Virus record (IMG/VR): IMGVR_UViG_2541047931_000006
DNA: 30,214 bases
DNA from: a virus
Lineage: Duplodnaviria > Heunggongvirae > Uroviricota > Caudoviricetes
Direction: 5' to 3' (one strand)
Below, piece after piece: positions 21,798 to 22,244 of the stretch (the first letter of the stretch is position 1; every line of letters starts with the position of its first letter). Both the position numbers and the translations under genes were made by a program. Below the pieces are notes generated by a model. The model did no database searches. It saw nothing but the letters and a program-made list of their open reading frames with translations, and was not told the origin of the DNA.

Positions 21798-21893
21798 ATG
21801 ATTAGTCAATTACCAAACTGGAAATTTTTGCTGGTCTGGAGCATCCCTTTTTTATGGGTAGTATCCCAGTTAATTGTGGCAATTAAGGGGTAG
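21798..21893 (+). CDS. Mini-ORF 1, 31-aa hydrophobic peptide
   Basis: MISQLPNWKFLLVWSIPFLWVVSQLIVAIKG; GGGAG about 12 nt upstream; below the ORF-track size cutoff, translated by hand. Confidence 0.35.
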   Translation: MISQLPNWKFLLVWSIPFLWVVSQLIVAIKG

Positions 21894-21895
21894 CT

Positions 21896-22027
21896 ATGTC
21901 AGACAAACTCATAACGCCGGCAAAGGTCCTGTGTGTGATTGTCGGTATTTCATTTTCACTAATGCTGGTTGCTCTTTTTCTGTCCCTCGCCTGGGTGATG
22001 TTGTCTTCGTCGGGGCTGCTGGGGTGA
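21896..22027 (+). CDS. Mini-ORF 2, 43-aa single-TM peptide
   Basis: MSDKLITPAKVLCVIVGISFSLMLVALFLSLAWVMLSSSGLLG; RBS TAAGGGG directly upstream. Confidence 0.4.
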   Translation: MSDKLITPAKVLCVIVGISFSLMLVALFLSLAWVMLSSSGLLG

Positions 22028-22146
22028 CAGTGACTGATGACATCAGCAGAGCGCTGGCTTTTGCTATTAAGTGGGTGGCTGTTGGTATTGCTGTGTCTCC
22101 GATGCTGTATGGGCTGGCAAAACTGGTCATTGCGCTGAAATCGTGA
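22024..22146 (+). CDS. Mini-ORF 3, 40-aa hydrophobic peptide
   Basis: GTG start overlapping the mini-ORF 2 stop (GTGA); ...SRALAFAIKWVAVGIAVSPMLYGLAKLVIALKS; paralogous to mini-ORF 4. Confidence 0.35.
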   Translation: MTVTDDISRALAFAIKWVAVGIAVSPMLYGLAKLVIALKS

Positions 22147-22157
22147 ACTTTAAAAAG

Positions 22158-22244
22158 ATGAGTGCTGAACTTATTCGGGCAATGGCATTTGCCATTCGTA
22201 TTGTGGCCATTGCTGTTCTGGTCTGGGCAATCCGTTGGTGGTGA
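22158..22244 (+). CDS. Mini-ORF 4, 28-aa hydrophobic peptide
   Basis: [28 protein letters not shown]; stop 1 bp before the Rz ATG. Confidence 0.35.

Follow-up and report, generated by a model that had tools for sequence, protein, structure and literature searches.

What do four very short, hydrophobic open reading frames (ORFs) contribute to a phage lysis cassette when they stand in a row between the endolysin gene R and the spanin gene Rz? The row lies in IMG/VR record IMGVR_UViG_2541047931_000006, a 30,214-nucleotide (nt) stretch of DNA that we refer to as the window and whose source is an E. coli lambdoid prophage. Over the segment 21735-22250 (516 nt), strains such as E2348/69 and ST131 show 100% identity, and DNA matching the region was found by BLAST in 1944 of 5426 complete E. 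coli genomes. From the evidence set out below we favor, tentatively, the reading that the mini-ORFs encode late-expressed, accessory inner-membrane mini-proteins of a single helix each, which modulate lysis.

Hydrophobicity and coding potential of the four mini-ORFs

The original prediction placed four consecutive ORFs of 31, 43, 40 and 28 amino acids (aa) at 21798-22244, each with a transmembrane-like helix, joined by tight or overlapping junctions and preceded by a strong terminator. We could reproduce its coordinates and features, and the terminator proved to be a stem with a T-run (Table 1). The ORFs occupy 97% of the 447-nt interval; ORF2 and ORF3 overlap in a GTGA at 22024, and the stop codon of ORF4 lies 1 nt upstream of the Rz ATG (22246), with the Rz ribosome-binding site held in the final codons of ORF4 (GGTGGTGA-T-ATG). 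The peptide encoded by ORF1 reads MISQLPNWKFLLVWSIPFLWVVSQLIVAIKG, and that of ORF2 contains a hydrophobic helix of 26 residues. Each ORF reaches a Kyte-Doolittle mean of 1.9-2.9 over 19 residues, a strongly hydrophobic stretch that bears out the transmembrane-like character claimed for it. Among the remaining 242 ORFs of 28-60 aa, counted over all six frames of the window, only 2 reach 1.9. Four hydrophobic ORFs on the same strand appeared in 0 of 2000 shuffles of the interval, the maximum being three. AlphaFold predicted a single helix over residues 2-38 for the ORF2 family (predicted local distance difference test, pLDDT, 89.6) and one continuous helix over residues 4-47 for the ORF3 family (pLDDT 87.4), both of them isolated helices that carry no fold information.

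PGAP (RefSeq) already calls the mini-ORFs as hypothetical proteins (WP_001280935 for ORF2 and WP_032140280 for ORF4), with a longer CTG start for ORF3 (WP_042004856) and, in some genomes, an over-extension of ORF1 to 70 aa (WP_001043230). We rejected the 70-aa start because it begins inside the terminator and because two allele classes of ORF1, which are wholly different upstream of the core, both give 31 aa from an ATG; this supports the start chosen in the original prediction over the PGAP call. The second of these classes (MKMIKTDWKF...) shares an ATGA overlap with the ant gene. The 51-aa PGAP version of ORF3 was rejected as well, since its upstream CTG is non-standard and does not match the canonical start of the family. 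A hydrophobic 33-aa ORF at 22037-22138, in the +1 frame within ORF3, contains 13 stops in 11 alleles and was set aside as a by-product of composition.

We gathered ~190 related loci from complete E. coli genomes, GenBank phages, IMG/VR contigs and NCBI assemblies, counted substitutions on a minimum-spanning tree of the distinct alleles and expressed the synonymous excess as a binomial p. Close relatives were too alike to be informative, and divergent alleles were found for each ORF. In the called frame, the nonsynonymous-to-synonymous ratio (omega) was ~0.14 for ORF3 (13 distinct alleles, p=2e-17), ~0.32 for ORF1 (8 alleles, p=0.014), ~0.41 for ORF2 (25 alleles, p=7e-7) and ~0.52 for ORF4 (10 alleles, p=0.004), while both alternative frames gave ~0.84-3.1 and no synonymous excess. 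Pairwise Nei-Gojobori estimates were consistent with the tree-based values. The lengths of 31 aa and 43 aa recur among divergent alleles, and the ORF4 of one locus (L061) carries an insertion of 3 nt that stays in frame.

The original prediction had proposed this comparison of synonymous and nonsynonymous changes, and the outcome agrees with it: the excess appears for all four ORFs and in the called frame only. It had also named frameshifts or stops in homologous regions as grounds for refutation. Three disrupted copies do exist, namely a stop in ORF1 of L085, a stop in ORF2 of L090 and a frameshift in ORF3 of L093, but they are rare exceptions among the 8-25 distinct alleles per family and largely fail to refute the claim. 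The substitution patterns thus indicate that all four ORFs are protein-coding and under purifying selection, with most confidence for ORF2 and ORF3 and least for ORF1.

Families, arrangements and host cassettes

By sequence similarity, the four ORFs represent three families: ORF1, ORF2 and ORF3/ORF4. Among the PHROGs, ORF1 matched phrog_6632 (E 6e-5, or 1.3e-12 for the extended ORF1), ORF2 matched phrog_4906 (E 4.5e-21), and ORF3 (E 6.4e-25) and ORF4 (E 3.8e-6) both matched phrog_1115, 3246 and 4493. All of these carry no function and include over-extended calls (profiles of 67-90 aa). That ORF3 and ORF4 looked paralogous had been noticed at first sight; their common PHROG matches agree with this, as do a local alignment score of 47 against 23.1 +/- 4.5 for shuffles (5 standard deviations above) and natural intermediates between the two. 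The latter comprise an ORF4-like N-terminus on an ORF3 core (P0151), a chimera of an ORF3 N-terminus and an ORF4 core (P0181), and a bridging sequence that gives an ORF3-like body an RWW end (P0190). The canonical ORF3 family has 48 aa (MKNGLELKAPVTDDISRAxAFAIKWVAVGIAVSPMLYGLAKLxIALKS) and the canonical ORF4-type form has 37 aa. The ORF3 and ORF4 of the window are versions of these with a short N-terminus; the short form MSAE(L/F)IRA recurs elsewhere with its own ATG.

None of the four peptides had a match in Pfam, NCBIfam or PADLOC (0 PADLOC families at E<=1), and none matched a PHROG of the lysis category. A VLCV...MLVA similarity to the transmembrane segment of Rz raised the possibility that ORF2 had arisen from it by duplication, which we rejected for want of significance (shuffle p ~0.008 in 28 comparisons, uncorrected; hhalign probability 0.5%).

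When 1.84 billion representative proteins were searched exhaustively by profile, only 14 clusters were returned for the ORF3/4 family, in whose distant members the hydrophobic helix is kept; its ORF4-family member P0177 occurs on at least 999 contigs (2585 index blocks). For ORF2 we found 103 protein clusters at 90% identity, all from E. coli, and full-length, intact homologues at 62-100% identity in 276 GenBank phage records (tblastn), mostly Shiga-toxin (Stx) phages; ORF3 was found in 12 phage records and ORF1 in 11. In most of the Stx-phage genomes among the matches listed, the ORF2 homologue has no annotated feature (for example, AP012533.1 30774-30902 and NC_010237.1 29117-29245), and in the Sakai prophage Sp5 it is ECs_5707. 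The carriers include Stx phages and plaque-forming phages grown on E. coli C or K-12; the inducible phage PhiR5_1 has ORF2-4 at 100% identity. Homologues come from E. coli, Shigella and Salmonella only, and relatives of ORF3 from E. coli and Salmonella. No member of the ORF3 family was found in GTDB species representatives. The sole match of the ORF2 family in 185,579 species-representative genomes is a 328-bp contig of a Xanthomonas pisi assembly (L185, NZ_JPLE01000251.1), which is probably E. coli or phage contamination.

The mini-ORFs are arranged in many ways. Counting over 177 loci gave 22 architectures, of which R>1>2>3>4>Rz was found at 75 loci, R>3>2>Rz at 49, R>1>2>Rz at 18 and the Stx-phage type R>Ant>2>Rz at 12; R>3>4>Rz, R>1>2>4>Rz and R>3>2>3>4>Rz are among the others, and R>4>Rz was seen in addition. 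The break-points of BLAST matches coincide with ORF boundaries. Throughout the ~190 loci, no mini-ORF family was found outside a lysis cassette, and the position is always downstream of the endolysin gene. Where a spanin gene is present, the mini-ORFs stand directly upstream of it, with junctions that overlap or leave 1-11 nt. In all loci examined, the last mini-ORF ends 1-11 nt before Rz and its last codons, whether those of ORF4 or of ORF2, form the Shine-Dalgarno (SD) sequence of Rz; the ORF4-Rz junction is kept in 91 loci.

The ORF3/4 family was found in four cassette types. The first has an S21-type holin and a lysozyme. Another, in Salmonella, consists of an HP1-type holin, a lysozyme and Rz. 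A third, in E. coli, combines holin_8 and holin_3_7 with a GH108 endolysin that has no N-terminal hydrophobic segment, followed by ORF3-like and ORF2-like genes and then a small lipoprotein gene, with no Rz. The family also occurs in a cassette with an M15 peptidase. The K-12 prophages DLP12 and Qin, in contrast, have no mini-ORFs, and their rrrD-rzpD and rrrQ-rzpQ genes abut directly. This absence indicates that the mini-ORFs are accessory genes that would tune lysis and are not core lysis genes, and it makes the small-protein literature on K-12 inapplicable to them. Judged by this distribution, the lysis cassettes of enterobacterial temperate phages draw on the mini-ORF families as accessory modules that can replace one another.

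In the cassettes that lack Rz/Rz1, the small lipoprotein gene directly follows the mini-ORFs (L182 3306-3461; L092 1564-1782; L192, phiP27, 2174-2362). The protein has a lipobox, FLVGC, and a mature part of ~30 aa with three Cys, and in phiP27 the annotation uses a different frame. The lipoprotein is possibly an outer-membrane component of lysis that has so far gone unrecognised.

Expression signals and possible roles

A conserved leader and a bidirectional terminator separate the endolysin gene from ORF1 (Table 1). The leader contains a small hairpin (GGAT-AACACGAA-ATCC) and aligns with other E. coli architectures and with the Salmonella cassette. Close relatives have two haplotypes of the leader segment 21619-21677, and its only ATG is lost in one of them; the segment is therefore non-coding, and a 17-codon ORF before the terminator was rejected. 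The terminator, which folds with a free energy of -45.8 kcal/mol (z -2.9, 146-nt stretch), is bidirectional by virtue of an A-run 5' of the stem. Five other architectures have it at the corresponding position. The stem of the Salmonella copy shows compensatory changes, and the GH108 cassette has a terminator of different sequence. A search of 21550-22300 against Rfam, at gathering and permissive thresholds, found nothing beyond sub-threshold terminator look-alikes. The whole element at 21604-21735 could be a small RNA, either derived from a 3' untranslated region or independent, or a safety terminator.

A consensus scan found no sigma-70-like promoter site on the + strand between the terminator and ORF1, from which we infer that the mini-ORFs are transcribed only by the Q-modified late polymerase. 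In the Q-dependent late operons of lambdoid phages, terminators are read through. On the - strand, the sole site in the region (21902->21873) matches the consensus at 9 of 12 positions, such sites are fewer than expected from shuffles, and its -10 hexamer is lost in the other ORF1 allele.

Elsewhere, canonical ORF3/ORF4 modules carry a - strand sigma-70-like site (TGGACA-18-TATACT, 10/12) that overlaps the start codon of a mini-ORF (Table 1) and aims at the bidirectional terminator 70-100 nt away, which points to a short RNA that would run convergently and be complementary to the leader of the mini-ORF. This site is absent from the window, which has the ORF1 module there.

As lysis modulators, the mini-ORFs would be transcribed along with the genes for holin, endolysin and Rz/Rz1, and solely by the late polymerase that resists terminators; the terminator ahead of them would keep both the mini-ORFs and Rz/Rz1 silent in the lysogen. 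Translation would be chained through the stop of ORF2 and start of ORF3 in the GTGA and through the stop of ORF4 next to Rz. The peptides would then enter the inner membrane late in infection and tune the timing or completeness of envelope disruption, either by altering membrane energisation or by contacting a transmembrane segment of a lysis protein or of a host membrane protein. Because the same families accompany four types of holin and endolysin, a generic membrane effect or a host target seems likelier than one phage partner. Judged by context, antiholin or lysis modulator is the most plausible class. The broader description in the original prediction, membrane-active peptides, is a fair one for the transmembrane-like products of protein-coding genes under purifying selection; the type I toxin part of that description has little support in the window, as discussed below.

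Several points weigh against a role in lysis. The mini-ORFs show no homology to a characterised holin, antiholin, releasin or spanin in Pfam, PHROGs, NCBIfam or hhalign comparisons. Literature searches by the WP accessions and by ECs_5707 found no paper or supplement on the mini-ORFs and no expression or phenotype data; there was likewise no entry keyed to lysis genes in the supplements of a paper on small RNAs in enterohaemorrhagic E. coli (EHEC) by cross-linking and analysis of cDNAs (CRAC) with Hfq, and no mention of the mini-ORFs in a survey of Stx-phage lysis cassettes. The promoter scan was a crude consensus match and leaves room for a weak or non-sigma-70 promoter and for lysogenic expression. 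ORF4 has no recognisable SD sequence, and ORF1 is the weakest of the four, with few alleles and one of them truncated (L085). The C-terminal conservation of ORF2 and ORF4 could in part be due to the Rz ribosome-binding site within them rather than to the peptide. Finally, the ORF3 and ORF4 of the window, being without the conserved long N-terminus (MKNGLE...PVTDD), might be attenuated forms.

A bolder version of lysis modulation, which we regard as rather unlikely, is that the swapped single-helix peptides form a combinatorial toolkit that sets lysis timing. They would act on the membrane step directly: they might assemble together with the hole-forming helix of the holin or nucleate it, or they might depolarise the membrane in which signal-anchor-release (SAR) endolysins are retained. 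Such peptides would be toxic and would be doubly silenced in lysogens, by the bidirectional terminator and, in canonical modules, by the convergent small RNA. If so, a safety circuit like that of type I toxins would sit inside a phage late operon. The ORF3 core IKWVAVGVAVSPMLYGL faintly resembles the second transmembrane domain (TMD) of pinholins; the hhalign probability of the ORF3 family against the S21-type holin of the window was 1.5%, and we rejected mimicry of that domain, keeping it as a lead only.

We rank four other explanations below late lysis modulation and take them here in order. The first, which is possible but unlikely, is that the mini-ORFs are moron genes that benefit the lysogen: the prophage would express them, and their target would be a membrane protein of the host, with a role in superinfection exclusion, in barring the DNA of other phages from entry or in fitness, and not in lysis. 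Extra DNA is known to insert at the junction between R and Rz, ant in Stx phages being an example, and the modules resemble morons in their mobility and shuffling. A narrow taxonomic range fits a host-specific target; the GC content of the mini-ORFs is also slightly below that of their neighbours (38.5% in ORF1). The expression signals point the other way, however, since no + strand promoter-like site stands between the terminator and ORF1, the conserved terminator is upstream rather than downstream, and translation is chained to ant and Rz. In addition, no PADLOC defence model matched, and the supplements of ribosome profiling in a Sakai lysogen have no entry near the Sp5 copy or beside lysis genes, a weak point given multi-copy reads and the fact that annotated copies are not listed as novel.

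The original prediction had itself suggested type I toxin-like peptides, which would be held off by a cis-encoded or divergent small RNA. We consider this improbable. Against it stands the arrangement of four genes in tandem, which belong to a Q-dependent late operon, are coupled to Rz and, over ~190 loci, occur in lysis cassettes without exception; nor did we find a toxin mRNA promoter in the crude consensus scan, or a match to a toxin family or to an Rfam antitoxin RNA beyond sub-threshold terminator-like matches. What speaks for it is the small, hydrophobic, single-helix nature of the peptides (by hydropathy and AlphaFold), the bidirectional terminator upstream and the 10/12 promoter-like site on the - strand over a mini-ORF start at other loci (L186 and Salmonella L179). 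A - strand promoter facing a terminator in this way is a layout that resembles tisB/istR, shoB/ohsC and zor/orz. In the window, however, the 10/12 site is missing, and the 9/12 site has the limits given above: the low count against shuffles and the -10 that is not kept in the other ORF1 allele.

It is similarly doubtful that the mini-ORFs are leader ORFs whose translation, not product, matters. Here an ORF that ends at the start of Rz would restore coupling and unfold the Rz ribosome-binding site after added DNA had moved R and Rz apart. Although R overlaps Rz directly in K-12 prophages and the last mini-ORF ends 1-11 nt before Rz and contains its SD sequence, this would account for the last ORF of each array at most, and the same families also occupy first and middle positions and occur in Rz-less cassettes. 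Purifying selection on the peptides while synonymous sites vary freely, and a hydrophobic helix kept in distant members, argue against it too.

That the mini-ORFs are decaying or spurious ORFs of cryptic prophages, hitch-hiking and annotated through self-propagating homology, is very improbable. In its favor, the mini-ORFs have no assigned function, their families are very short with a simple composition, the support from PHROGs and PGAP depends on gene prediction, and a few copies are disrupted. Against it, the synonymous excess is frame-specific and owes nothing to annotation, chance would give far fewer hydrophobic ORFs of this kind, and the homologues are intact at 62-100% identity in 276 phage records, many of them without annotation, and occur in phages that form plaques.

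As genes, the four are no novelty, being in PGAP and PHROGs; their family relations, combinatorial shuffling, strict residence in lysis cassettes of several types and conserved upstream terminator appear to be undescribed in the searchable literature. In Stx phages, toxin release depends on phage-mediated lysis, and lysis-cassette peptides could affect the timing or amount of toxin and phage release. As modulators, the mini-proteins would extend the few known lysis regulators by a new class, and the lambdoid holin-endolysin-spanin model, often treated as complete, would become directly testable for completeness. If the peptides are inert, the value lies in better annotation only.

Neighbouring genes and comparison with known systems

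Table 1 Features of the lysis region in the window, with elements at other positions and loci where given
Feature	Position	Strand	Details
S21-type class II (pin)holin, 71 aa	20001-20216	+	PF04971 E 2.3e-32; PGAP: class II holin
DUF1327/YdfR-like gene, 268 aa, between holin and endolysin genes	20221-21027		
Lysozyme-type endolysin (R)	21070-21603	+	PF00959
Conserved non-coding leader after the endolysin stop, ~90 nt	21604-21693	+	
Strong intrinsic terminator, bidirectional	21694-21735	.	15-pair stem 21694-21726, then T-run
ORF1, 31 aa	21798-21893	+	ATG start; GGGAG 9 nt upstream
ORF2, 43 aa	21896-22027	+	ATG start; AAGGGG ~6 nt upstream
ORF3, 40 aa	22024-22146	+	GTG start within the GTGA overlap of the ORF2 stop
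ORF4, 28 aa	22158-22244	+	ATG start 11 nt past the ORF3 stop
Rz i-spanin	22246-22740	+	PF03245 E 4.4e-51
Rz1 o-spanin, embedded in Rz	22466-22651	+	+1 frame; lipobox LVVSAC
Promoter-like site at other loci	L186 2469-2498; homologous L179 (Salmonella) 3008-3037	-	Same sequence in L086/L087
Rfam-matched elements	4432-4483, 10978-11153, 15513-15759, 15837-16514, 17302-17424		Rfam

The genes around the mini-ORFs make up a recognisable lysis cassette (Table 1), in which Rz and Rz1 are both intact and separate from the mini-ORFs. The N-terminus of the endolysin, MNTKIKYGLSAAVLALIAAGAPAP, is a weakly hydrophobic, SAR-like segment. The N-terminus of the holin (20001-20012), MYQMEK, has two Met codons and is similar to the S71/S68 dual start of phage 21. 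Its three-residue extension has no Lys, which we take to be the residue that makes S71 an antiholin, and the usual built-in antiholin may be absent from this holin.

The YdfR-like protein of the window, with its 268 aa, looks like a fusion: YdfR-family genes at other loci encode ~104-116 aa, and its C-terminal 130 residues match other PHROGs of no assigned function. A 74-aa ORF at 22737-22961 overlaps the stop of Rz. Its clear homologue in the M15-peptidase cassette, which is without Rz, takes up the corresponding position (L092 1920-2165), and the ORF may be a further conserved gene associated with lysis cassettes. Elsewhere in the prophage, Rfam matches comprise DicF, sok, three tRNAs, two STnc100 copies and isrC.

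We compared the mini-proteins with the known components of lysis cassettes. Holin architecture was taken as at least two TMDs (classes I and II) or one TMD with a large periplasmic domain (class III), together with a charged C-terminal tail. The mini-proteins have a single helix in 28-48 aa and a C-terminus of 1-7 residues, and none matched a holin family. None of the four has the lipobox or periplasmic domain of a spanin.

Mu gp25, the releasin (DUF2730), is a small single-TMD protein that helps a SAR endolysin exit the membrane and whose gene lies a few genes downstream of that for the endolysin; it has 99 aa, with an acidic cytoplasmic domain of 73 aa (PMC9239132). As the window likewise has a SAR-type endolysin, the mini-proteins could resemble the releasin by analogy. 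They differ from it in having no soluble or other extramembrane domain and no match to DUF2730 or any other Pfam family, and in occurring also beside the GH108 endolysin that lacks an N-terminal hydrophobic segment.

With the toxins of the TisB/IstR-1, ShoB/OhsC and ZorO/OrzO systems, the mini-proteins share peptide size and a single hydrophobic helix and, at other loci, a possible divergent promoter with a shared upstream terminator. In contrast to these systems, the crude promoter scan of the window gave no + strand site ahead of the mini-ORFs, no family matched, the divergent promoter of those loci is absent, and the genes stand in tandem in a late operon.

MgtR, AcrZ, MgrB and KdpF are bitopic helices of 30-50 aa with almost no soluble part that bind a larger membrane protein. 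The mini-proteins are like them in size and predicted topology, and binding to a larger membrane protein is plausible here by analogy. The four are chromosomal with a known partner each, whereas the mini-ORFs are phage-borne and specific to lysis cassettes.

The remaining comparison is with lysis modulators. In P2, lysA is flanked by K, the endolysin gene, and by lysB, which is Rz-like. The mini-ORFs are similarly flanked by the endolysin gene and Rz, share their strand, have tight junctions and showed no promoter of their own in the scan, so that co-transcription with the cassette would be expected. Like P2 LysA and antiholins such as S71 of phage 21, LydB of P1 and RI of T4, the mini-proteins are encoded in a lysis cassette, would be co-expressed with holin and endolysin, are predicted to lie in the inner membrane and appear dispensable for lysis as such. 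They have no sequence or profile similarity to these proteins, and their one helix in 28-48 residues differs from the four TMDs of LysA and the periplasmic domain of RI. Their genes also form arrays that encode from two to four peptides, either unrelated or paralogous, and are reshuffled from phage to phage; an effect on timing is only proposed for the mini-proteins. By position and predicted location, the mini-proteins are nevertheless most like modulators of the P2 LysA or antiholin type.

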